Shown here piece after piece: positions 1-14,871 of a DNA stretch of 14,871 bases. The notes beneath the pieces were generated by a model. That model was not told where the DNA came from. It made no database searches and saw only the letters and a program-made list of their open reading frames with translations. The stretch lies in the IMG/VR virus record IMGVR_UViG_2541047124_000022. One strand, given 5' to 3'. This DNA comes from a virus (taxonomy: Duplodnaviria > Heunggongvirae > Uroviricota > Caudoviricetes). The position numbers and the translations under genes are program-made. Numbering within the stretch: position 1 is the first letter of the stretch; each line of letters starts with the position of its first letter.

Positions 1-172
1 CTGATTACGCAGTACCTGTTCGATCTTCGCTTTCTCGGATGCCTCACATTCACCATCTGCACAGGCCACCAGGTATGCGGCGTTAATCACCGCCTGTGCC
101 AGATCGCGTTTTTCAAACTTTTTAATTTCCGTTGCCGCTCTGCGGGCTTTTTTTACCAAAAATACCAAACAT
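1..172 (-). CDS. 5' portion of a minus-strand gene running off the window start; product unknown; frame broken at a 7-nt homopolymer
   Basis: ATG at 172-170 with AAGGA SD about 8 nt upstream opens a frame that stops after 16 codons (MFGIFGKKSPQSGNGN). A second frame, offset by one base after the T7 run at 148-154, stays open to position 1 (..KKARRAATEIKKFEKRDLAQAVINAAYLVACADGECEASEKAKIEQVLRNQ). Confidence 0.35.
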
Positions 173-303
173 CGTGACGTTCCTTTGGGTGGGTGAGCCA
201 ACGCCCGGGAGCGATCTGCCCACAGAGAAAGTCACACTGACCACTCCGTAAGCTCCCCCCGAAAGGCTCTGTGGTTGGTATGCGCCGGGCGTGGCGCAGA
301 TAC

Positions 304-329
304 AAAAAAGGCCCGCCGAAGCGAGCCTG
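304..329 (-). terminator. Rho-independent terminator downstream of the tRNA array
   Basis: On the minus strand: 7-bp stem GGCTCGC/GCGGGCC (one mismatch) with a UUCG tetraloop, followed by TTTTTT. Confidence 0.6.
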
Positions 330-340
330 GAAAATAAGTG

Positions 341-417
341 TGGCGCGTTGTACTGGAGTCGAACCAGTGACCGATTGCTTAGAAGGCAATTGCTCTGTCC
401 GGCTGAGCTAAAAACGC
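341..417 (-). tRNA. tRNA-Arg, anticodon TCT (reads AGA), CCA encoded
   Basis: Reverse complement folds as a 77-nt cloverleaf: acceptor GCGTTTT/ACAACGC (one U.C mismatch at 6-67), D arm GCTC/GAGC, anticodon stem ATTGC/GCAAT with loop CTTCTAA, T arm ACTGG-TTCGACT-CCAGT, discriminator G, CCA. Confidence 0.85.
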
Positions 418-430
418 AGAATACCGATAA

Positions 431-507
431 TGGACCGCCATCGGGGACCCGAGCCCCGCGCAGCCAGCTTCGAAGGCTGGCGCTCTGTCACGATGAGCTA
501 ATGGCGG
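431..507 (-). tRNA. tRNA-Arg, anticodon TCG (reads CGA), atypical D and T loops, CCA encoded
   Basis: Reverse complement: acceptor CCGCCAT/ATGGCGG (7 perfect pairs), D stem GCTC/GAGC, anticodon stem CCAGC/GCTGG with loop CTTCGAA, T stem CGGGG/CCCCG, discriminator T, CCA. D loop lacks GG and T loop is CTCGGGT rather than TTCRANY, so it may be a phage-type or degenerate tRNA. Confidence 0.65.
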
Positions 508-514
508 TATGTGA

Positions 515-564
515 TGGTGGCCCTTGCTGGATTTGAACCAGCGACCTGGCGATTATGAGTCGCT
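515..564 (-). pseudogene. 5'-truncated tRNA with CAT anticodon (tRNA-Ile2/Met type); only nt 27-76 retained
   Basis: Reverse complement gives anticodon arm AGCGA-CTCATAA-TCGCC (4 of 5 stem pairs; first pair A-C mismatched), variable AGGTC, T arm GCTGG-TTCAAAT-CCAGC, acceptor 3' strand AAGGGCC, discriminator A, CCA. The expected 5' acceptor strand GGCCCTT and a D arm are absent; the sequence at 565-600 is unrelated and AT-rich. Confidence 0.6.
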
Positions 565-712
565 CTCATCATTTAGCTAAAATGGCTGGGGGAGTGATGA
601 TACATCAGTCACATTAAACATGAAAACAAAATGGTTTTAGGTGAAATACAAAAAGAATAGTGATTAAATATCAAATGGATATGCTTTAAATCTAACCACA
701 GTAAGGACGAGT

Positions 713-1657
713 ATGATTTTTCTCAAGAATGGCGAAAGTTTTATTCGCGTGAATGACTGGGCAGAAATTCAGGCGAGAGAGTCTTACTATCCCAAATTAG
801 AGTTAAATGATCAGCAACTCTCTGACGTTTTTGGTTACTACGATGACCTACCAGAGGAAATTCCATGTGGAAAATCAAATTGCCGCAAAGGGCATAAAAA
901 GGGATTTCTGGTAGTTACGAAAGAAGGATTTGAAACGAATATCGGCCATGTATGTGGAACTAATGTTTTTGGTATAGCCTTTGATAATTTAGCAATAGAA
1001 CTTTGCCGAAAAGCAGATTTCCATCGCTTACTTACCGCACTTAAAGAGGCAAAAGATGATATTTTTAGCTATTACAAACTCAAAGCCAAAATCGAATCTG
1101 GGCGTCCATCACTAACTGAGGTTGCTCATAGAATACTTGACATGAAAGACCCTAAAATCATCGGGCGTGCAGCTTATCAAACATTGAAAAAGATGGCTGC
1201 TTCTGGTGATGGGCGTGTTTTCCGCTCAAGATTAAAAAATACAGAAGAGCTAGAACTGGACGAAATTATGTCCCAGAAGCAAACAAGCGACTCAGCTCCA
1301 AAAGTTAACAACAAAAACAAAACCGTAAATGAACTTATTGGGGTAATACAATACCCTGAATGCTTGCTGAATGATTATGACATTGCTCTTCTTTATGAAA
1401 GAGATATAAAAATGGTTCTGGAAAAATTAAACAAATGTACCCCAGATGAATTGACTGAAAGAGAGGTGTTGTCTTTTGGAATAAAGGTTTCAAGATTAAG
1501 AGAACGCTTTAACTTTGTTCAGGAACGCTTAGAAAAATCCAGGGTTTTTGCAACAAGAGAAAACCTTAAACCTTTACGTGCATTACTTAACATTCAGAAA
1601 TCTGTAAGCAATAAAGACAAATTACTATTTAAGAAATTTATGGAAAATTTACCATAA
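713..1657 (+). CDS. Hypothetical protein, 314 aa; moron-like accessory gene of unknown function
   Basis: ATG at 713 with AAGGA SD 5 nt upstream; long uninterrupted ORF; visibly lower G+C than neighbours; opposite orientation to flanking genes; ends 7 nt before a strong hairpin terminator. No family recognised by eye. Confidence 0.75.
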   Translation: MIFLKNGESFIRVNDWAEIQARESYYPKLELNDQQLSDVFGYYDDLPEEIPCGKSNCRKGHKKGFLVVTKEGFETNIGHVCGTNVFGIAFDNLAIELCRKADFHRLLTALKEAKDDIFSYYKLKAKIESGRPSLTEVAHRILDMKDPKIIGRAAYQTLKKMAASGDGRVFRSRLKNTEELELDEIMSQKQTSDSAPKVNNKNKTVNELIGVIQYPECLLNDYDIALLYERDIKMVLEKLNKCTPDELTEREVLSFGIKVSRLRERFNFVQERLEKSRVFATRENLKPLRALLNIQKSVSNKDKLLFKKFMENLP

Positions 1658-1663
1658 TTAAAA

Positions 1664-1683
1664 AACCCGCTATAAAGCGGGTT
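1664..1683. terminator. Bidirectional rho-independent terminator
   Basis: 8-bp stem AACCCGCT/AGCGGGTT with ATAA loop. T-rich on the plus side (terminates 713-1657) and T-rich on the minus side (terminates the short transcript from the promoter at 1725-1754). Confidence 0.7.
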
Positions 1684-1724
1684 CCGTGTTAATTTTTATA
1701 TTGGCGCTAAACCCCATAATTAAA

Positions 1725-1754
1725 ATGATACAAGACAATTTTATGCAAAGTCAA
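1725..1754 (-). promoter_or_regulatory. Sigma70-type promoter just downstream of the zinc-finger gene, followed about 45 nt later by a terminator (pR'/tR'-like unit)
   Basis: Minus strand: -35 TTGACT (plus 1749-1754), 18-nt spacer, -10 TATCAT (plus 1725-1730). AT-rich -10-like repeats (TAATTAT, TATAAA) lie in the initial transcribed region before the hairpin at 1664-1683. Confidence 0.45.
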
Positions 1755-1793
1755 GTCAGTTGCTCAAAAATCTCTCCGCCAAAGCTGTTCAGA

Positions 1794-2609
1794 TCAGTAA
1801 CTCGTTGCCTTCTCAAATTCTCTAGCCGCATGCCGCTCACCTTGATGCAGGATATCAACCAATTTTTCATAGAATGGTTTCCAATTGCGCGACCATGAAG
1901 ACTGGTGCAGATCGGGAATGTATATTTGAATAGCTCGATGAACATTAGCTGATTTGATAGATACGAATCCCTTTCCACTACAACGCTCGCAGATTTTAAA
2001 CACTGGCACACCACGCTCGCTTGTGGCTTTGCGGTCCAGTACCTCTCCCTTTCCACCACAACGACACCTGGCACTTATCACTCCCTTCCCTTTACATACA
2101 TCGCAAACGACTGGTACAACTTCCGTTACCTCTGTCCATTTTTCCCAGTCTGACGGTCGAACAGCACGGGAGCGACTGGCCCAATATGGTGCTTTACCCC
2201 ATGGGTATGAAACCTTACGAATGACCTGCTTACGGGGTGTTAGTCCGGTACCACTGCAACTATGGCATGTTACGCTGGTGGCCGCCGATCGGGAATACTC
2301 AGCAAAAGCAAACTGAGCCAGTACCAGCATACACCAGCCAAATTCACCACCAGCTGCTTTACGCACATTCTTCGGTGCAATTTCCATCGCGTGACGCGCC
2401 AGCGCCTGGACTGCCATCTGCTCATCAGTCTTGCTGATACCGGCCTTCCCGAAGAAGGCCGCCAGGCCAAACCGCTCACGATTGCTGGTGGTACCAATAG
2501 CCGCCATAACATCGGTGCCTGTAAGACGTTCCGGAGAGGTTCCTTTCACATCGTCGCCGATATACATTCCCTGAGGACTGAAGTATTTTAGCGATGCCTC
2601 AAGCTTCAT
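1794..2609 (-). CDS. Zinc-finger protein with four DnaJ-like CxxCxGxG repeats, 271 aa; possible Q-type late antiterminator by position
   Basis: Motifs CHSCSGTG, CDVCKGKG, CRCGGKG, CERCSGKG. Start overlaps upstream gene stop (TAATG). Last gene of the early-right operon, immediately upstream of the promoter-terminator unit. Confidence 0.8.
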   Translation of the reverse strand: MKLEASLKYFSPQGMYIGDDVKGTSPERLTGTDVMAAIGTTSNRERFGLAAFFGKAGISKTDEQMAVQALARHAMEIAPKNVRKAAGGEFGWCMLVLAQFAFAEYSRSAATSVTCHSCSGTGLTPRKQVIRKVSYPWGKAPYWASRSRAVRPSDWEKWTEVTEVVPVVCDVCKGKGVISARCRCGGKGEVLDRKATSERGVPVFKICERCSGKGFVSIKSANVHRAIQIYIPDLHQSSWSRNWKPFYEKLVDILHQGERHAAREFEKATSY

Positions 2610-3466
2610 TATTCACACTCCCCAACCAGATTGAGAATGACCGCTGCACCGTCGTCTTCCATGCATTCACCCTTACCACTTGCCAGAAACCAGCGGCACA
2701 CCTCCACGGCTTCAGCGCGTGTCACCGGTTTGATAGTTGCCAGCAATTTTTCAAGGTAGCGCTCCCGGTCATATACTGATTCGTGATGCTCAGAGTAACC
2801 AAACTCATCGCCCTGTTCTTTAGTTGCAGTGTGGCGAACACTGTAGAGCCAGTCCCAGTAAACGAACTCGCGAACAACATCAGACAGCGTATAAGGCTCA
2901 GGCAGCACATCGCGATATCCATCAACAAATGCCCGACGCTGTTCATCAATTTCGTTCATGCGGCTGCCGCCAATGCTTCCGGCTTTTTTCTCTGCCGCAG
3001 TCCAGCCCCAGAGATGATCGTTGATAAATTTCTGGGAAGACCTGATGACCCGCTCTGCTTCCACATCTTCGAGCGCTGCTTCATAGCTACCAAACGTAGC
3101 CCTGACTGATGCCGCTTTTTTGATGTTCTCCCGGGCGTTCCTGATAACCTGCGCAGGGTTATCCATGCCGATGATGCCGAACGCAACCTGGAAAGGTTCG
3201 TAACCATTCGCCAGCAGATAACGCGAATAGCGTTCCTGAGCCTCTTTTGGGGAAATTTTAATTTTCACCAGCGCAGCCTCAGCAGCATCCAGATGTGCGG
3301 GTTCGTTCAGACGGATAACCTCCAGCACCCAAAGATAAGCATCAGTCTGCTTATGCCCGGTGATTCTCCGTTGCTCTGGCAGGGGCTTGATGTTTGCGAG
3401 GGCGGAGCTGTACGCTGCCGTCGGGATGGTGAATAGTGCTTTATGTTCGTTGTTATCAGTACGCAT
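2609..3466 (-). CDS. Hypothetical protein, 285 aa, in the replication operon
   Basis: Long ORF translationally coupled at both ends (TAATG overlaps with primase stop and zinc-finger gene start). No recognisable motif. Confidence 0.75.
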   Translation of the reverse strand: MRTDNNEHKALFTIPTAAYSSALANIKPLPEQRRITGHKQTDAYLWVLEVIRLNEPAHLDAAEAALVKIKISPKEAQERYSRYLLANGYEPFQVAFGIIGMDNPAQVIRNARENIKKAASVRATFGSYEAALEDVEAERVIRSSQKFINDHLWGWTAAEKKAGSIGGSRMNEIDEQRRAFVDGYRDVLPEPYTLSDVVREFVYWDWLYSVRHTATKEQGDEFGYSEHHESVYDRERYLEKLLATIKPVTRAEAVEVCRWFLASGKGECMEDDGAAVILNLVGECE

Positions 3467-4434
3467 TACGCAACCGCCTTTTTCTTATGGAAAACCAGCT
3501 CTCGAACCTGATCACCGTTCATGAGCATATTGTTGAAATCATCGTGATCCGGCCAGTACACGCTCACGCGCTGCAGGTCATTCTTTGCCATCAGATTGGC
3601 ATGAGCACATTCGCAAGCCGCAGCCAGCCCGGTGGCGCTGTTCTCGTCACGGTCGGCAAAAATAATCAGGTGCAAAACACCAGTTGGTACGCGGAACTTT
3701 TTCATAAAGCCGCTGTTAATGGTTGCCCAGGTGTTCACGTTATAAATCTGGTGCGCTGACAGCGCTGTTTCGATGCCTTCGGCGATACCCAGAGTGCTGG
3801 CGACAGGAAACATGCGGATAGCTACAGAACGAGCGTGATCCAAATAGTTATCTTCCTGCAGGGATTTGAGGCGCTTTGCACTGCTACCGATATCTGCTTT
3901 TTTATCACCATCAAGCAGAGTCTGGTGCAGATAGCACAACTCCCCTTTATCGTCCGTAGCAAGTGAATAAAGAGACTGGAACACACTCCCGTTGTGTCTC
4001 TGCCTGGCATTGAACCGGATCGCCTCAGCAGGAAGACTGAATATTCCACGAGAATTAAGATACGCTGCGCCGGATGTACCACGCAGTGCCTCCAGTTTTG
4101 AAAACTTGCTCAATACCCGTTTGCGTAAGCTGGTGGCGCTGCTGGTTACCGGGATTTTAACCCGTTGGTAATCATTACCGATCAGGCGGTCTATTTCGGT
4201 ACAAATCTCGTTAAATGGCTTCGCCTGTGTCAGGGTGACAAGTTTCATACCATCGCCACTACCACATACACAGATCCACGTTCCTGCACCGTCGCGGTCG
4301 TCAATTCGGAACTTGCCACGTGCACCGCATACCGGGCATTCACCCTTGAAGTGATTTTTTCCGGTTATCGGCGGCAGACCGAAGTGCTCTAATATTTCAG
4401 GCCAGCGGCCTTTCGCTGCATCTGCTGTTTTCAT
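3466..4434 (-). CDS. DNA primase, zinc-ribbon plus TOPRIM type, 322 aa
   Basis: N-terminal CPVCG...CVCG zinc-binding motif; acidic TOPRIM-like motifs (IAEGIETALS, IFADRDENSATG); start 1 nt after helicase stop. Confidence 0.8.
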   Translation of the reverse strand: MKTADAAKGRWPEILEHFGLPPITGKNHFKGECPVCGARGKFRIDDRDGAGTWICVCGSGDGMKLVTLTQAKPFNEICTEIDRLIGNDYQRVKIPVTSSATSLRKRVLSKFSKLEALRGTSGAAYLNSRGIFSLPAEAIRFNARQRHNGSVFQSLYSLATDDKGELCYLHQTLLDGDKKADIGSSAKRLKSLQEDNYLDHARSVAIRMFPVASTLGIAEGIETALSAHQIYNVNTWATINSGFMKKFRVPTGVLHLIIFADRDENSATGLAAACECAHANLMAKNDLQRVSVYWPDHDDFNNMLMNGDQVRELVFHKKKAVA

Positions 4435-4435
4435 C

Positions 4436-6094
4436 TTACTGACTCAGACTGTTTATATTTTTCTGGAGTTGGTGCTTTGCCTGCATGATGCGCCAGGCCT
4501 CACTGCCTGCCGGTATCTCACGTCGTTCATCACGTTCCTGAGATAAATCAATCGTTGTTTGTGCGTTTTCAGTGACCTTCTGAACCCGCTGGTGGCCTTT
4601 GGCAAACCGGATCAGTTTGTGTCTGATGTAGTTATTTACCTCAGGGGTAATTTCCATCGGAAAGTTACTCAGTCCGTCAGGCCACTCGCCGAACTTTTCC
4701 CGGAAAGTGTGAGCACACCATCCGTCACTGACTGGACGCCCCAGCGAAGCACGCTGGCGCTGATAAAATTTGATCTGACTCCACCAGGACTGTTTCTCTG
4801 CCTTCGTCGACTGATGCTGATTTTTACCCAGCTTATTAAGTTTGCGGCTAGTGTCAGTATCAACGTCTTCACCTCGCAGCGGCTTGTGTCCACATTTCGG
4901 GCAAACATAGACGCCTGCTGGCTTCATGTAGTGGCATTGAGGGCATTCATGTGGCAGTTTTTCGGCCCGTTCCTCAACTGCCCGGCGCGCGCTTTCCTCC
5001 ATGCCGTCAGACTTACCGGGAAGCTCGTCGTACTCGATTGAATCCGGATAACCCAAACGGTGCACGGTGCCGCTGTGATCGAAGATAAGGCAGGACTCTT
5101 TACCCGGTGCGGTGCGAAGCCCACGCCCGAGAGCCTGCAACCAGCGAATTTCGCTTTTTGTTGGCCTGGCGTAGATGATGCAACGAACGTCACTATCGAA
5201 TCCGGCTACCAGAACGCCCACACTAACGATGATTTTCGTTGCACCAGTTTCAAAGCGGTGAATGATGGTCTGGCGCTCATCTACCGGAGTATCTGCGGTC
5301 ATTACCTCAGAGTTAACACCTGCGAGGTTAAACTGGATTGTCAGGTAATTGGCGTGGGCTACGTTGACGCAGAAAGCGATGGTAGGTAGATCCCGACCAT
5401 TCTCCAGCCAGTTCTGTACAATGTCGCCCACCAGCGTAGAGCCGCACATGATTTCAGCCAGCTGTGTTTCGTTGTAATCGCGGCCGTACTCAAGCGAAGA
5501 TGTGGTTTTAACACCTTTCAGATCCGGCTTAGTTGGCGCGTAAAATTCGTATTTACTCAGATCGCCACGCTGGATTAACTCGCCGATGGTGGTCGGTTTA
5601 ATCAGTCGGTCATAGTATTTGCCCAGGAACGGGGAAAACGGAGTACCCGACAGGCCAATCACCTTTACGCCTTTGCCGCGCAGACGTTCGATATCCTTCA
5701 GGATGCGTTTTTTACGCAGGTGCGCTTCGTCGATAATCAGCAGATCGATATTTTCAGGAAAAACACGACGAATAAGCGTATCAGCGCTGGCAATCTGAAT
5801 TTTCCGGTCCGGATCGTAGTTCGGGTGATCCGCCCAGATATAACCGATTTCATCTCCAGGTAAACCATACTGCACGAACCGATTAGCCGTCTGACCAATC
5901 AGGATGGTGTACGGAACACAGAACAGAGCGCGCATACCACGGCTGACAAAACCAGCAACTATGAAGGCTGCCAGACCCGTTTTACCGCTACCTGTTGGCG
6001 AATACACCATGAAGGTGTCGTTTGCCTTCCAGTCACGGCGCAACATGTTTAGCGCTCGTTCCTGTGCAAAATTCGGCGTGATCGTCAGCTCCAT
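4436..6094 (-). CDS. Superfamily-2 DEAH-box helicase, 552 aa; candidate replicative helicase
   Basis: Walker A SPTGSGKT; Walker B LIIDEAH; C-terminal zinc ribbon CPQC...CPKCGH; GGGAG SD 7 nt upstream of ATG. Confidence 0.85.
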   Translation of the reverse strand: MELTITPNFAQERALNMLRRDWKANDTFMVYSPTGSGKTGLAAFIVAGFVSRGMRALFCVPYTILIGQTANRFVQYGLPGDEIGYIWADHPNYDPDRKIQIASADTLIRRVFPENIDLLIIDEAHLRKKRILKDIERLRGKGVKVIGLSGTPFSPFLGKYYDRLIKPTTIGELIQRGDLSKYEFYAPTKPDLKGVKTTSSLEYGRDYNETQLAEIMCGSTLVGDIVQNWLENGRDLPTIAFCVNVAHANYLTIQFNLAGVNSEVMTADTPVDERQTIIHRFETGATKIIVSVGVLVAGFDSDVRCIIYARPTKSEIRWLQALGRGLRTAPGKESCLIFDHSGTVHRLGYPDSIEYDELPGKSDGMEESARRAVEERAEKLPHECPQCHYMKPAGVYVCPKCGHKPLRGEDVDTDTSRKLNKLGKNQHQSTKAEKQSWWSQIKFYQRQRASLGRPVSDGWCAHTFREKFGEWPDGLSNFPMEITPEVNNYIRHKLIRFAKGHQRVQKVTENAQTTIDLSQERDERREIPAGSEAWRIMQAKHQLQKNINSLSQ

Positions 6095-8112: not shown

Positions 8113-8147
8113 CACCTCAGCAAGTAAAAACAAGTGAGGTGAATGTA

Positions 8148-8591
8148 ATGTTAAATGATAAACATGACTCTTATTCCGTAAACTCTCTGTTGATTTGTGC
8201 TCAAGCGGCACTATTAGGCGGTACCGCTTCAAACCATGACGTCATCAACCTCTTAGATGTTGCACAAGACATCATCTCTTCAACTATGAATTCCTTTACA
8301 GATAGTAGCGCTCCCGGCGCTAATGTTGATTTATTTACCAAAGAAGTTAGCGCTAGTAATTCCCCAGCATTATCTTTCGGTCAACGTATTCTCCAAGCGC
8401 GTAAATCAGCAAGTCTTCAACAACATCATATTGCCAGCGGTGCTGGAGTGACTGTTCAGGCTGTTTCGTTATGGGAAAATGACTCAGCAATTCCTACTTG
8501 CGACAAAATTATCCCATTGGCAAATATTCTTGGCTGCGATCCAATGTGGTTACTGACTGGTGCTTATAAACAAAATCAGGAGGAAGCATAA
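8148..8591 (+). CDS. Protein with C-terminal XRE-type HTH, 147 aa; first gene of the early-left operon
   Basis: ATG at 8148 with GAGGTG SD (tracked ORF begins at GTG 8139); HTH segment FGQRILQARKSASLQQHHIASGAGVTVQAVSLWENDSAIP. Confidence 0.65.
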   Translation: MLNDKHDSYSVNSLLICAQAALLGGTASNHDVINLLDVAQDIISSTMNSFTDSSAPGANVDLFTKEVSASNSPALSFGQRILQARKSASLQQHHIASGAGVTVQAVSLWENDSAIPTCDKIIPLANILGCDPMWLLTGAYKQNQEEA

Positions 8592-10369: not shown

Positions 10370-10558
10370 ATGAACATTTATTTCAGAATAGTTATATCAC
10401 TGGCAATTATCACATGTATTTACGGATTAATCGTTCCGGCCCTCATATCAATGAAGGATACGGTAGCAGTGATTTCTGGCTTTGCTCTGGCGTGTCTGAC
10501 CCCGCCCTGCATTTATGCCATTTATAAGGGTCTTTCTTTTTCTAAGGATAAAAGATGA
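10370..10558 (+). CDS. Small membrane protein with two predicted TM helices, 62 aa
   Basis: Strong SD (CAGGAGGACC-ATG); hydrophobic stretches IVISLAIITCIYGLIVPALI and VAVISGFALACLTPPCIYAIY; ATGA-coupled to the downstream SPFH gene. Confidence 0.7.
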   Translation: MNIYFRIVISLAIITCIYGLIVPALISMKDTVAVISGFALACLTPPCIYAIYKGLSFSKDKR

Positions 10559-11382
10559 AAAAATTACTTTTTGCTTTAGCCCTTGTTCTGCCGACCATTG
10601 GCCTTGTCGGTTGCGATCGCGTTGAGCCTGGTAATGTGGGCATCAAAGTAAACAAACTGGGCGACGATAAAGGCGTCGGTGAAGTGGTCGGTGTTGGGCG
10701 CTACTGGACTGGATGGAACACTGAGGTTTACATCTTCCCGACCTTTAAGCAGATGAAGACCTACGATGATCCATTCAGTTTCCAGATGAGTGACGGTACA
10801 ACCATCGGCTATCACATCGGCGTGGCCTACAAAGTTGATCCATCCAAAGTTACCACGGTGTTTCAAACCTACCGCAAAGGCGTGGACGACATTACCGACA
10901 CCGACCTGCGCCAGAAGATAGCCGACGCACTCAACCGACTGGCCAGCAAAATGACCACCGACAAATTTATCGACGGCGGCAAGTCTGAGCTGCTGGATGC
11001 AGCTCTTAAAGACATTCAGGAAGAAATGACGCCCATCGGTATTCAGGTAATGAGCCTCTCATATGTGGGTAAGCCGGAGTACCCGCCTACTGTTATCGAC
11101 AGCATTAATGCCAAAGTCACGGCGAACCAGAAAACCCTGCAACGCGAGCAGGAAGTAAAACAGCGCGAAGCGGAAGCCAACATGTTGCGCGCGGAAGCTG
11201 CCGGACAGGCAGATGCGATTCGCACAAAAGCCCAGGCCGAAGCCGACGCTATTCGTTTACGCGGTGAAGCTCTGCGTCAGAACCCCGGTGTTATGGAGCT
11301 GGAAGCCATCAACAAGTGGAACGGTACACTGCCGCAATACATGACCAGCGGTGCCAACACACCATTTATTCAGGTTAAGTAA
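10555..11382 (+). CDS. SPFH/band-7 (prohibitin/HflC-like) lipoprotein, 275 aa
   Basis: Signal peptide with lipobox LVGC (Cys20); SPFH-like core; C-terminal Ala/Glu/Arg/Gln-rich coiled-coil region (QREQEVKQREAEANMLRAEAAGQADAIRTKAQAEADAIRLRGEA). Confidence 0.75.
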   Translation: MKKLLFALALVLPTIGLVGCDRVEPGNVGIKVNKLGDDKGVGEVVGVGRYWTGWNTEVYIFPTFKQMKTYDDPFSFQMSDGTTIGYHIGVAYKVDPSKVTTVFQTYRKGVDDITDTDLRQKIADALNRLASKMTTDKFIDGGKSELLDAALKDIQEEMTPIGIQVMSLSYVGKPEYPPTVIDSINAKVTANQKTLQREQEVKQREAEANMLRAEAAGQADAIRTKAQAEADAIRLRGEALRQNPGVMELEAINKWNGTLPQYMTSGANTPFIQVK

Positions 11383-13557: not shown

Positions 13558-14871
13558 ATGGATAAAGTCAAATATCCAACAGGCGTCGAAAACCACGGCG
13601 GCACATTACGCATCTGGTTTAATTTTAAAGGTAAACGTGTCAGGGAAAATCTTGGTGTCCCTGACACTGCCAAGAACAGGAAGATCGCCGGGGAACTGCG
13701 GACATCAGTATGTTTTGCCATCCGCACAGGAAGCTTTGATTATGCTGCACAGTTCCCTGACTCCCCCAACCTTCAGGCTTTTGGGGTAAGTAAAAAAGAA
13801 ATTACGGTGAAGGAACTTGAAGAAAAGTGGCTGGATCTGAAACGAATGGAAATCTCTGCAAATGCATTCAATCGCTATGAATCCGTTGCAAGAACGATGG
13901 TTCCGAAAATTGGAGGCAGTAGACTGGTGTCATCGGTAACCAAAGAGGAATTGCTGTATATCAGGAAAGATTTGCTGACCGGGCATCAGAATTCAACGAA
14001 AAACAAAGCAGCAGCAAAAGGACGGAGCGTCGTTACTGTAAATTATTACATGACGACAATCGCTGGAATGTTTCAGTTTGCTGCAGATCACGGTTACTTA
14101 GAAGCAAATCCCTTCCAGGGAATTAAGCCTCTTAAAAGAGCCAGGGCAGAGCCAGATCCGCTAACTCGTGACGAATTTATTCGCCTGATAGATGCTTGCC
14201 GACATCAGCAGACGAAAAACCTGTGGTCATTGGCTGTGTACACAGGAATGCGTCACGGTGAACTGGTCTCCCTGGCCTGGGAAGATATCGATCTGAAGGC
14301 AGGAACAATTACCATCAGGCGCAATTATACGAAACTTGGTGAGTTCACTCTACCGAAAACTGAAGCAAGCACAAACAGGGTTGTGCACCTTATCCAGCCC
14401 GCTATCAGTGTCCTGAAAAATCAGGCTGAAATGACAAGACTGGGTAAGCAGTACAACATCAAGGTGCAACTACGTGAATATGGACGTTCAGTGAACCATG
14501 AATGTACTTTCGTGTTTAACCCTCAAGTGGTTAGAAAAAGCGAACAGGTAGGTTTTGTCTACAAAGTCGATTCTGTAGGTGACTCATGGGAAACAGCCAT
14601 TAAGCGTGCAGGGATCAGGCATCGAAAGGCATACCAGTCACGACACACTTATGCGTGCTGGTCATTATCTGCCGGTGCAAACCCAAGCTTCATTGCCAGC
14701 CAGATGGGCCATGCAAGCGCCCAGATGGTGTTCAATGTATACGGAGCATGGATGACTGACAGCAATGCAGAACAGATCGCAATGCTGAATCAGAAGCTGA
14801 CAGATTATGTCCCAATGATGCCCCATAGTCACCAAAGTGACACCAGAGGATTATTAAAATCAGTAAGTTAA
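13558..14871 (+). CDS. int: Tyrosine site-specific recombinase (phage integrase), 437 aa
   Basis: N-terminal arm-binding-type segment (PTGVENHGGTLRIWFNFKGKRVRENLG); catalytic-region motifs (TGMRHGEL, HTYACW, VFNVYGAW); GGAGGT SD 5 nt upstream; stop at the last base of the window. Confidence 0.9.
   Translation: MDKVKYPTGVENHGGTLRIWFNFKGKRVRENLGVPDTAKNRKIAGELRTSVCFAIRTGSFDYAAQFPDSPNLQAFGVSKKEITVKELEEKWLDLKRMEISANAFNRYESVARTMVPKIGGSRLVSSVTKEELLYIRKDLLTGHQNSTKNKAAAKGRSVVTVNYYMTTIAGMFQFAADHGYLEANPFQGIKPLKRARAEPDPLTRDEFIRLIDACRHQQTKNLWSLAVYTGMRHGELVSLAWEDIDLKAGTITIRRNYTKLGEFTLPKTEASTNRVVHLIQPAISVLKNQAEMTRLGKQYNIKVQLREYGRSVNHECTFVFNPQVVRKSEQVGFVYKVDSVGDSWETAIKRAGIRHRKAYQSRHTYACWSLSAGANPSFIASQMGHASAQMVFNVYGAWMTDSNAEQIAMLNQKLTDYVPMMPHSHQSDTRGLLKSVS

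Follow-up and report, generated by a model that had tools for sequence, protein, structure and literature searches.

The window analysed here, a 14,871-nt stretch of viral DNA (Caudoviricetes, IMG/VR record IMGVR_UViG_2541047124_000022), very probably carries the late-gene antitermination cassette of an E. coli lambdoid prophage, as judged by sequence comparison: a Q-lambda protein with a long zinc arm, followed by its putative cognate pR', Q-binding element (QBE), pause element and tR'. A late switch with the architecture of pR'/tR' had been proposed in the original prediction, and both the homology of the protein and the conservation of every element of the cassette support it. The system is a known one. 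The protein is already named in RefSeq and GenBank as an antitermination protein, it belongs to a family with solved structures and a worked-out mechanism, and its long form, with extra cysteine motifs, is the architecture already known from phi80 Q. For this prophage group, every element of the cassette can now be annotated at single-base resolution, from the -35 through the QBE, the -10 and the pause element to tR'.

Identity and architecture of the Q protein

The gene at 1794..2609, on the minus strand, encodes a protein of 271 aa. It matches Pfam PF03589 (Q-lambda) with 173.5 bits (E 9.6e-52, against a curated cutoff of 26.7) and phrog_127, 'anti-termination protein Q-like', with an E of 1.7e-98. 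Using phmmer, lambda Q in the PDB (7ubm_Q) was matched with an E of 5e-33 and with both halves covered, residues 1–123 aligning with lambda Q 1–126 (E 7e-21) and residues 179–260 with lambda Q 115–197 (E 4e-11). On these matches the protein is a clear member of the Q-lambda family, in the phi80-like long-arm form, and the original impression that it did not belong to a described Q family was mistaken. The HMM search that had been suggested as a check, against lambda-, 21- and 82-type Qs, returned the lambda type, with neither Q21 (PF06530) nor Q82 (PF06323) among the Pfam matches of the protein at E ≤ 0.01. Q21 and Q82 follow the same regulatory logic of QBE, sigma-dependent pause and terminator (PMC9388147). 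They also occupy the same genomic position as the Q gene here, with no detected sequence similarity to it.

An AlphaFold2 model was generated from a 26-sequence alignment, and the top Foldseek matches to it were all lambda Q (7ubn_Q, E 2e-9, target-normalised TM-score 0.72), a result that serves here solely to identify lambda Q as the only structural relative. In a seven-sequence alignment, G39 and the C-terminal threonine, corresponding to G39 and T206 of lambda Q, are invariant. The annotation "antitermination protein (Q)" is already attached to identical or nearly identical proteins from E. coli genomes and from the phages vB_EcoS-611R1 and Fels-1; the Q proteins of Salmonella phage Fels-1 and Escherichia phage vB_EcoS-611R1, 81% and 99.6% identical to the one described here, are annotated and not characterised.

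Lambda Q (PDB 4MO1, 7UBJ–7UBN; PF03589) shares with the protein the nozzle-forming N-terminus, the body, the helix-turn-helix and the cysteine pairs of the zinc ribbon. Residues 1–114 are assigned to the N-terminal nozzle-forming segment and the first half of the body, residues 115–214 to a zinc arm with four cysteine motifs (eight cysteines), and residues 215–271 to the C-terminal body with its helix-turn-helix, whose recognition motif HQSSWSR (235–241) corresponds to TQPTWSR in lambda. Four CxxCxGxG repeats had been counted previously. Four cysteine motifs are indeed present, but only three are canonical (115–122, 169–176 and 207–214), the fourth being a CxCxGxG variant, CRCGGKG, at 182–188. 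All eight cysteines of the arm are invariant in 26 homologues. C182, C184, C207 and C210 align with lambda Q C118, C121, C144 and C147, with an identical 22-residue gap, and are predicted to form a lambda-like four-cysteine zinc ribbon between the two halves of the body.

Residues 115–180 have no counterpart in lambda Q and are shared with phi80 Q, Fels-1 Q and the Qs of Klebsiella phages. This long-arm insert, of ~55–65 residues, carries two additional cysteine motifs N-terminal to the lambda-like ribbon, and C115, C118, C169 and C172 most likely form a second zinc site that would lengthen the arm. Since lambda Q lacks the insert, it has one zinc site, versus probably two here. How the motifs pair (1+2 with 3+4, or 1+4 with 2+3) is a guess, because the pLDDT of the AlphaFold2 model, 80–90 in the body, is below 50 for residues 108–216. 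The long-arm Q is the majority form in phage records; among 250 records with a Q-lambda-type match, 133 cover at least 80% of the long protein. The Q of phi80 (gp17, GenBank JX871397) is a full-length homologue with 41% identity at 99% coverage, and has an equivalent ~65-residue insert with two extra cysteine motifs and a KVSYPWGKxPYW...RAVRPSDWExWT block. It was reportedly studied experimentally by Guo and Roberts in 2004.

The cysteine-rich domain of DnaJ (PF00684), like the arm of Q, is built of repeated zinc-binding CxxCxGxG motifs, and the protein had been described as an atypical DnaJ-type zinc-finger protein. A role as a DnaJ-like zinc-finger chaperone or a replication accessory protein, rather than as a transcription factor, would be favoured by these motifs, by sub-threshold matches to DnaJ_CXXCXGXG (PF00684, 27.1 bits, under the 32.7 cutoff) and TIGR02349 (DnaJ, 23.6 bits versus a cutoff of 377), and by the helicase and primase genes that precede the Q gene. 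However, the PF00684 match is confined to the cysteine motifs, no J domain was matched in the 271-aa protein among Pfam and NCBIfam profiles, and the protein is without the G/F region and the C-terminal substrate-binding domains of DnaJ. The spacing of its motifs (54, 13 and 25 residues), one of which is CxCxGxG, is also unlike that of DnaJ. Its homology to lambda Q and phi80 Q is full-length, Foldseek finds only lambda Q, and it is encoded where lambdoid phages have Q, downstream of the replication and nin genes. The DnaJ description was thus incorrect, and a chaperone or replication function is extremely improbable. A confident match to such a family, which the original prediction had named as grounds for abandoning the late switch, was not obtained, the DnaJ profiles scoring under their cutoffs.

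Promoter, pause element and terminator

The predicted sigma-70 promoter TTGACT-18-TATCAT, just downstream of the Q gene, was recovered on the minus strand as the top promoter-like site in positions 1–3000, with 10 of 12 positions matching. Its -35 (1749..1754) begins 39 nt past the Q stop codon, and its -10 lies at 1725..1730. All homologous loci from Enterobacteriaceae have TTGACT, TTGATT or TTGCTT at the equivalent place of the -35, and all have TATGCT, TATCAT or TAATCT at offset 5 past the QBE. From the usual 7–8 nt distance to the -10, the start site is predicted at ~T1718/A1717. An alternative promoter, TTGAGC-18-TAAAAT (1767–1738, 9/12), was rejected on two grounds: its -10 coincides with the A-rich core of the QBE, and the pair conserved across loci is TTGACT with TATxxT. 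Downstream -10-like candidates (GATATT, TATAAC in relatives) are conserved neither in the window nor in Fels-1.

Inside the promoter spacer, at 1736..1748 on the minus strand, lies the predicted QBE, TTGCATAAAATTG, identified by its likeness to lambda and by covariation with the protein. It differs by one base from the lambda element, TTGAATAAAATTG, at the equivalent place. The lambda QBE was itself placed by matching the description in PMC9388147, which gives for the lambda Q–QBE complex a 13-bp site with contacts at positions 1–4 and 11–13, to the lambda sequence. By analogy, we propose that positions 1–4 would be read by the helix-turn-helix and positions 11–13 by the zinc arm.

The predicted sigma-dependent pause element (1712..1721, minus strand) consists of AATTAT (1721..1716), an nAnnnT hexamer starting exactly 14 nt past the QBE, and a discriminator-like GGGG (1715..1712). 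The distance from QBE to -10-like element is also 14 nt in lambda, where the pause element AACGAT at +1 to +6 is followed by GGG and the pause occurs at +16 (PMC4005639). C and G stand 10 and 11 nt past the hexamer, as they do at lambda +16/+17 and in 23 of 50 loci, and by analogy the pause is predicted at C1706/G1705, roughly +13/+14. Only 3 nt separate the -10 from the -10-like element (6 nt in lambda, 7 nt in phi80), so that the start site would fall inside the latter and the pause, at ~+13, would come unusually early. In lambda, the -35 and -10 are placed 2–3 bp further upstream relative to the QBE, which accounts for its pause at +16 rather than the ~+13 predicted here.

A strong terminator within ~45 nt of the promoter had been noted as well, and a tR'-like intrinsic terminator is found at 1660..1685 on the minus strand. 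It comprises a hairpin (1685..1662) of 10 pairs with a 4-nt loop and a CCCGC/GCGGG stem core, beginning 39 nt after the -10, and a T6 run (1665..1660). The predicted RNA of ~58 nt (57–59) folds with -20.6 kcal/mol and z = -3.6 (0 of 200 shuffles as good); tR' of lambda is ~190 nt downstream, versus ~58 nt in the window. Among the 50 related cassettes, a script placed the end of the hairpin and T-run 55–69 nt past the pause element in 43, three further cases are visible by eye, and that of phi80 is at 74 nt. The terminator stems vary between loci (CCCGC, CCTCGC, CCCTGCC, GCCCC, GGCTCCGC).

Within 3 kb, 7 promoter-like sites were seen versus 4.6 ± 1.9 expected from shuffled sequence, and 3 terminator-like sites versus 3.5 expected, neither number being above chance. 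The promoter and terminator are held to be real because they are conserved in 50 related loci, and not on account of their match to a consensus. That such sites are no commoner than in shuffled sequence is a point for chance, and the hairpin starts 5 nt past the stop codon (1655–1657) of the convergent 314-aa gene, as it would if it merely terminated that gene and the promoter match were fortuitous, with no dedicated pR'/tR' unit. However, the T-run is found on the minus strand only, the plus-strand stem being followed by CCGTGTTAATT, and loci from many genera, lacking any homologue of the 314-aa protein, have a hairpin with a T-run equally far from the pause element. Promoter, QBE and pause element are moreover conserved and covary with the Q protein, and we regard a chance assembly of this kind as highly improbable. 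The hairpin may also stop the convergent gene, the two roles being compatible.

Promoters of the pR' type fire constitutively, and lambda, 21, phi80, 82 and P22 are all known to make short terminated RNAs. In a lysogen, the short RNA could be the main product of the unit and act in trans as a small RNA, as does StxS, a proven Hfq-binding small RNA made from pR' of Stx phages (PMC7547250). This would be a function added to the switch, not an alternative to it, and we consider it improbable. A hairpin followed by a U-run is a typical Hfq-binding 3' end, and the tightly conserved length of the short RNA in the 43 loci mentioned above would also favour it. On the other hand, sequence conservation between pause and terminator is low (0.64 bits per column), which makes a conserved seed less likely, and Rfam at gathering thresholds returned the three tRNAs only, with no match for the short pR' RNA.

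Conservation of the cassette and a candidate recognition code

The cassette (-35, 13-bp QBE, -10, nAnnnT hexamer, hairpin and T-run) was found in 50 of 51 homologous loci, lambda among them. A 13-bp element of the TTGnnnnnnnnTG type is present in 49 of these 50, the phi80 equivalent being CGCGGAAAAACTG. The QBE is separated from the pause element by 14 nt in 46 cassettes and by 15 nt in four, the -10 hexamer varies among loci in its offset from the QBE (2, 3 or 5), and GGG follows the nAnnnT hexamer in 27. Mean information is 1.36 bits per column in the QBE and 1.35 in the pause element, versus 0.39 in the upstream flank.

Across loci, the recognition-helix motif and QBE positions 4–6 covary perfectly: xQ[S/P][S/T]WSR is paired with TTG[C/A]AT in 24/24 loci, and xxRTW[T/R]R with TTGTCC in 25/25. 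Both have switched together within single genera. In E. coli, the Q of the window and that of locus L008 are 99% identical over aa 1–214 and 46% identical over aa 215–271. In Photorhabdus, the Qs of L029 and L035 are 92.5% identical, and their C-terminal 60 aa differ solely in ELTQSSWSR versus DLNERTWRR and in the final residue. Independent co-switches were also found in Xenorhabdus and Providencia. Under the inferred code, the counterpart of TTGCATAAAATTG would be TTGTCCGAATTTG, matched by the helix variant HVRTWTR. Covariation and the 14–15 nt spacing together give a simple rule for predicting which Qs can cross-activate which late promoters in multi-prophage strains.

In the GenBank record of phi80, pR', a Q-binding site and a terminator close by are annotated. 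As in the window, GGG comes after the -10-like element and the terminator is ~55 nt past the -10, with a short RNA. In contrast, the recognition-helix region of phi80 Q, IKKTAAYEQ, and the phi80 QBE are unrelated in sequence to those of the window, its QBE and pause element are 15 nt apart rather than 14, and its -10 is 2 nt past the QBE rather than 5. Fels-1 and vB_EcoS-611R1 share with the window the preceding genes (helicase, primase, 285-aa protein), the QBE type, the pause element and the short tR'; Fels-1 differs in having another terminator stem and another downstream convergent gene.

These features could be combined into a broader reading, which we think unlikely on balance, in which long-arm Qs use an unstudied geometry together with a contact made by the second zinc ribbon and a swappable helix code for QBE bases 4–6. 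If so, the promoter would be shifted 2–3 bp toward a fixed QBE–pause module, placing the start site inside the -10-like element and letting sigma re-engage after ~9 bp, and the pause at ~+13 would be the earliest known Q-loading pause. The second ribbon would contact sigma region 4, the flap or extra DNA, for example, a contact that lambda Q is without. A five-residue helix patch (QSS.S versus ERT.R) would then be a simple code for QBE bases 4–6, setting which Q drives which late operon, including that of stx2i, in multi-prophage cells.

Proposed switch and genomic neighbourhood

Lambda Q acts through a body, an arm, a 13-bp QBE and a nozzle (PMC9388147). By homology with it, sigma-70 RNA polymerase would start constitutively at TTGACT-18-TATCAT, sigma region 2 would re-bind at AATTAT/GGGG, and the polymerase would pause near C1706/G1705. 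Without Q, transcription would end at the hairpin and T6 (1685–1660), giving the ~58-nt RNA. Q, made from the early rightward operon, would bind TTGCATAAAATTG in the promoter spacer as one monomer, with the helix-turn-helix (HQSSWSR) on the TTGC end and the zinc ribbon (C182, C184, C207, C210) on the TTG end. It would then contact the paused polymerase and, with NusA, its conserved N-terminal segment would form a nozzle on the RNA-exit channel, so modifying the polymerase that it ignores tR' and later terminators. Read-through would run antisense over the 314-aa gene, then through the tRNAs and then into lysis and late genes, which in a sister prophage include stx2i.

The Q gene sits between replication/nin genes and lysis/late genes on the same strand, with a helicase, a primase and a 285-aa gene upstream. 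In vB_EcoS-611R1, a phage record 98.9% identical, the tRNAs, holin, lysozyme and Rz come after the Q unit on its own strand, and in E. coli CFIAFB20180511 the same Q/pR' unit is followed by tRNA-Arg and stx2i A/B. Because the unit lies directly upstream of stx2i in that genome, this type of Q would be among the switches gating Shiga toxin expression. The unit in the window might nevertheless be a relic in a defective prophage that drives no late genes now: the window ends before any lysis gene, a tciA-like ORF at its left end may be frameshifted, and the matching phage record is just 21 kb. We find this quite unlikely, given that the Q ORF is unbroken, with 100% identity between unrelated E. 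coli strains, that all elements of the cassette are intact, as are the integrase, repressor-like and replication genes of the window, and that sister loci have holin, lysozyme and Rz, or stx2i, downstream.

The convergent gene, termed a moron in the original prediction, encodes 314 aa at 713..1657, between tR' and the tRNAs. It lies on the plus strand and the tRNAs on the minus strand, so the orientations originally given for the read-through transcript hold. The product matches phrog_7003, annotated as unknown function, with no match in Pfam, NCBIfam or PADLOC. Homologues were found only in the E. coli loci L001, L008 and L010, the one in L008 being 25% identical and in the same position. Beyond this gene, ARAGORN and Rfam place a tRNA-like or pseudo-tRNA sequence at 518–586, tRNA-Arg(TCG) at 431–507 and tRNA-Arg(TCT) at 341–417, all on the minus strand. 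By the annotation of matching Stx phages, this cluster (341..586) corresponds to the ileZ-argN-argO block. After the tRNAs, the terminator scan found a second terminator-like hairpin and T-run at 309..328 on the minus strand, which would be expected to act as a further barrier, passable only to Q-modified polymerase.

Family and architecture of the Q protein

The protein encoded upstream of the promoter (271 aa; 2609..1794, minus strand) had been described as an atypical zinc-finger protein that was not recognized as a described Q family. An HMM search placed it in Pfam PF03589, "Antitermination protein Q", with 173.5 bits (E 9.6e-52; cutoff 26.7), and it matched PHROG 127, "anti-termination protein Q-like", at E 1.7e-98. 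Three Q families are recognized, Q-lambda (PF03589), Q21 (PF06530) and Q82 (PF06323) (PMC9388147), and the Pfam search gave no match to either of the latter two. Among PDB sequences, the protein matched lambda Q (7UBM chain Q; E 5e-33) over two stretches, residues 1-123 aligning with lambda 1-126 and residues 179-260 with lambda 115-197. The helical body of the AlphaFold model was confident and the arm unreliable, and for this predicted structure the only significant PDB neighbors were those of lambda Q.

Compared with lambda Q, the protein has an extra ~65-residue insert (115-180) with two additional Cys motifs. The Q of phage phi80 (gp17) has an identical insert architecture, including the block KVSYPWGKxPYW...RAVRPSDWExWT, and the insert recurs in Q from Fels-1 and from a number of phages of Escherichia and Klebsiella. 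Since at least 80% of the protein is covered in 133 of the 250 phage records with a tblastn match, this long form is common rather than atypical. A 99.6%-identical protein in phage vB_EcoS-611R1 is annotated "antitermination protein Q", several E. coli chromosomes contain copies of the 2141-nt unit at 560-2700 (100% identity) with the gene labeled "antitermination protein", and the named database homologs (n=634) likewise carry that name. Such a Q is already known and annotated: the protein belongs to the phi80-like long form of the Q-lambda family. Of the four CxxCxGxG repeats in the original prediction, three were confirmed (115-122, 169-176 and 207-214), while the fourth reads CxCxGxG (182-188). 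The resemblance to DnaJ is restricted to these Cys motifs, and a DnaJ-like or replication role is contradicted by the homology to Q. The DnaJ profiles PF00684 (27.1 bits vs. 32.7) and TIGR02349 (23.6 vs. 377) both scored below threshold.

The late promoter and its conserved spacing

All elements of the putative late promoter lie on the minus strand. The -35 hexamer TTGACT (1754..1749), 39 nt past the Q stop codon, is separated by an 18-nt spacer from the -10 hexamer TATCAT (1730..1725), and with 10 of 12 positions matched this is the top sigma-70-like site in window 1-3000. A hairpin of 10 pairs (1685..1662) starts 39 nt past the -10 and runs into a T6 tract (1665..1660); the ~65 nt from the predicted start site fold at -20.6 kcal/mol (z = -3.6). 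Neither promoter-like sites (7 in 3 kb vs. 4.6 in shuffled sequence) nor terminator-like sites (3 vs. 3.5) are in excess, so a consensus match by itself proves nothing, and the case for both elements depends on comparative sequence evidence.

Where the lambda late promoter pR' has TTGAATAAAATTG, the spacer in the window has TTGCATAAAATTG (1748..1736), the predicted Q-binding element (QBE). In the crystal structure of the lambda complex, a Q monomer sits on a 13-bp site, with the helix-turn-helix at positions 1-4 and the zinc arm at 11-13 (PMC9388147), a description that fits both TTGA...TTG in lambda and TTGC...TTG in the window. Exactly 14 nt past the QBE is a predicted pause element, AATTAT followed by GGGG (1721..1712); lambda has AACGAT followed by GGG, also exactly 14 nt past its 13-bp element. 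The lambda AACGAT is a -10-like pause-inducing sequence at +1..+6 with a discriminator-like GGG, and it brings about the sigma-dependent pause at +16 (PMC4005639). C1706 and G1705 of the window are 10 and 11 nt past the hexamer, and lambda likewise has C and G at +16/+17.

We compared 51 full-length homologs, 41 from species-representative genomes of Enterobacteriaceae, Morganellaceae (Photorhabdus, Xenorhabdus, Providencia, Proteus) and Erwiniaceae, the remainder being phage and E. coli loci. The cassette of promoter, QBE, pause element and terminator is present in 50, at most 230 nt from the Q stop codon in 45 and a further 0.5-1.4 kb downstream in five; one locus, L041, has no cassette in its available sequence. 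The sigma70 promoter and nearby strong terminator after the Q-position gene are thus real. The five distant cassettes (L012, L023, L024, L037 and L044) have 0.5-1.4 kb of inserted DNA between the Q stop codon and the pR'/QBE cassette, and despite the insertion their QBE type still fits the Q recognition helix.

The offset from the 13-bp element to the start of the nAnnnT hexamer is 14 nt in 46 loci and 15 nt in four; the hexamer is followed by GGG in 27 loci, GGA in 13 and AGG in five. The -10 hexamer varies in position: its distance past the QBE is 2 nt for lambda and phi80, 3 nt for the group of Morganellaceae and Erwinia, and 5 nt for the Enterobacteriaceae group, to which the window belongs. 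Because the -10 shifts relative to the QBE/pause module, the constrained quantity is the QBE-to-pause-element distance, as would be needed for a protein that spans the gap from the QBE to a paused polymerase with bound sigma. The QBE and the pause element with GGG carry 1.36 and 1.35 bits/column of information, respectively, compared with 0.39 for the flank upstream and 0.64 for the stretch from pause element to terminator. For 43 of the 50 cassettes, a script located a hairpin and T-run that end 55-69 nt past the pause element, and three more were recognized by eye; in phi80 they end at 74 nt, while the lambda terminator is ~190 nt away. Terminator stems vary in sequence (CCCGC, CCTCGC, CCCTGCC, GCCCC, GGCTCCGC). 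The fixed module with a shifting promoter is of modest interest in a system otherwise already known.

By homology with lambda Q, polymerase would start constitutively at pR', and sigma re-binding at AATTAT/GGGG would pause it. We infer the start site, a pause at ~+13/+14, the zinc stoichiometry and all activities; with the promoter 2-3 bp closer to the QBE-pause module, the pause would come earlier than the +16 of lambda. Without Q, transcription would end at the terminator tR', giving a ~58-nt RNA. When Q is available, one monomer would bind the QBE and engage the paused complex, and its conserved N-terminal segment together with NusA would form an exit-channel nozzle, as described for lambda Q. 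Having passed tR', the modified polymerase would cross the 314-aa gene in antisense, continue over the tRNAs and further terminators, and reach the late genes. The hairpin could instead merely terminate the convergent 314-aa gene, but this is unlikely, as only the minus strand has the T-run, and loci lacking that gene retain the hairpin. As an extra function, the short pR' RNA may possibly act in trans, a role shown for such an RNA in the case of StxS (PMC7547250), although the sequence of its body shows little conservation and Rfam gave no match. The pR'/tR'-like late switch proposed in the original prediction is the right reading, given the Q homology, the QBE-pause spacing and the covariation between helix and QBE.

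Covariation of the recognition helix and QBE

The C-terminal body motif of Q aligns with the helix-turn-helix region of lambda Q. Where this motif is xQ[S/P][S/T]WSR, as in lambda and the window, TTG[C/A]AT opens the QBE (24/24); where it is xxRTW[T/R]R, TTGTCC does (25/25). In Photorhabdus, the Q proteins of loci L029 and L035 are 92.5% identical, and over their C-terminal 60 residues differ, the final residue aside, only by ELTQSSWSR vs. DLNERTWRR; their QBEs are TTGCATAAACTTG and TTGTCCGCAATTG, respectively. Xenorhabdus and Providencia have the identical kind of co-switch.

The Q of E. coli N61 is 99% identical to that of the window over residues 1-214 but only 46% over 215-271, with the motif HVRTWTR and the QBE TTGTCCGAATTTG. 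The recombination junction, at window nt ~1966 (codon ~215) and also seen in H3 and H96-H101, lies where the arm meets the body in lambda Q, at residue 152/153 (PMC9388147). Exchange at this point replaces a single module made up of pR', the QBE and the C-terminal portion of Q with the helix-turn-helix. Because co-switches occur in E. coli, Photorhabdus, Xenorhabdus and Providencia, these sequences indicate covariation that shared ancestry only does not explain. The proposed five-residue recognition code for the QBE is a second point of modest interest. Many E. coli prophages and phage phi467 are 94-99% identical to the window upstream from 1966 and then diverge.

The convergent gene, tRNAs and stx2i

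The 314-aa gene (phrog_7003, function not assigned; 713-1657) lies in plus orientation between tR' and the tRNAs, which are themselves encoded on the minus strand, so the predicted direction of read-through, antisense to this gene, is correct; transcriptional interference is therefore possible in either direction. Searches of Pfam, NCBIfam and PADLOC gave no match for its product. Among the compared loci the gene is restricted to E. coli prophages (N61, 1279-2199; CFIAFB20180511, 1654-2598; L001, 3410-4354). The N61 homolog, 25% identical (E 2e-26), is in the corresponding position behind the other QBE/helix-turn-helix module type and has in common with the window protein a CGxxxCxxxH...GxxCG motif.

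The ileZ-argN-argO block of Stx phages has its counterpart downstream of Q, on the Q strand, in two tRNA-Arg genes preceded by a tRNA-like element. The element at 518-586 (minus), in the ileZ position, scored 36 bits in Rfam (gathering score 29), was not called by ARAGORN and is "tRNA-Pseudo-TAT" in a matching phage record. A second strong terminator-like hairpin and T-run (309-328, minus) directly follows tRNA-Arg(TCT), and in the sister locus L009, which lacks the 314-aa gene, three terminators in a row separate pR' from the tRNAs. In phage vB_EcoS-611R1 (98.9% identical), holin, lysozyme and Rz follow the tRNAs. In E. coli CFIAFB20180511 (NZ_CM143727.1, 230-3549), the Q, pR' and 314-aa-gene unit, its Q 82-91% identical to that of the window, is directly upstream of one tRNA-Arg and stx2i A/B, and a long-arm Q-lambda-type antiterminator would therefore gate the Shiga toxin operon; the link of this Q type to stx2i is the third point of modest interest. 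The whole unit is found in 22 of 5426 complete E. coli genomes.

Upstream of Q, profile matches on the minus strand identified genes for a helicase, for a P4-type primase and for a 285-aa protein (phrog_6204, function unassigned by PHROG). The last of these genes ends in a stop codon that overlaps the start codon of Q (TAATG), which suggests that their translation is coupled. The replication module at 2609-6094 has a DEAD/ResIII helicase and a P4-type zinc-ribbon/Toprim primase, not lambda O/P. A tciA/TerB-like ORF (1-175, minus) runs off the left end of the window; an ATG at ~173 opens a frame that ends after 16 codons, and the conserved frame resumes after an A7 run at ~146-152, which suggests a frameshift or a TTG start. 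The other prophage arm (10555-11382 and 13558-14871, plus) carries genes for one SPFH/Band-7 and one ORF6N-domain protein and for a tyrosine integrase that has an Arm-DNA-binding domain, and an HTH_3 repressor-like gene is located at 8139-8591.
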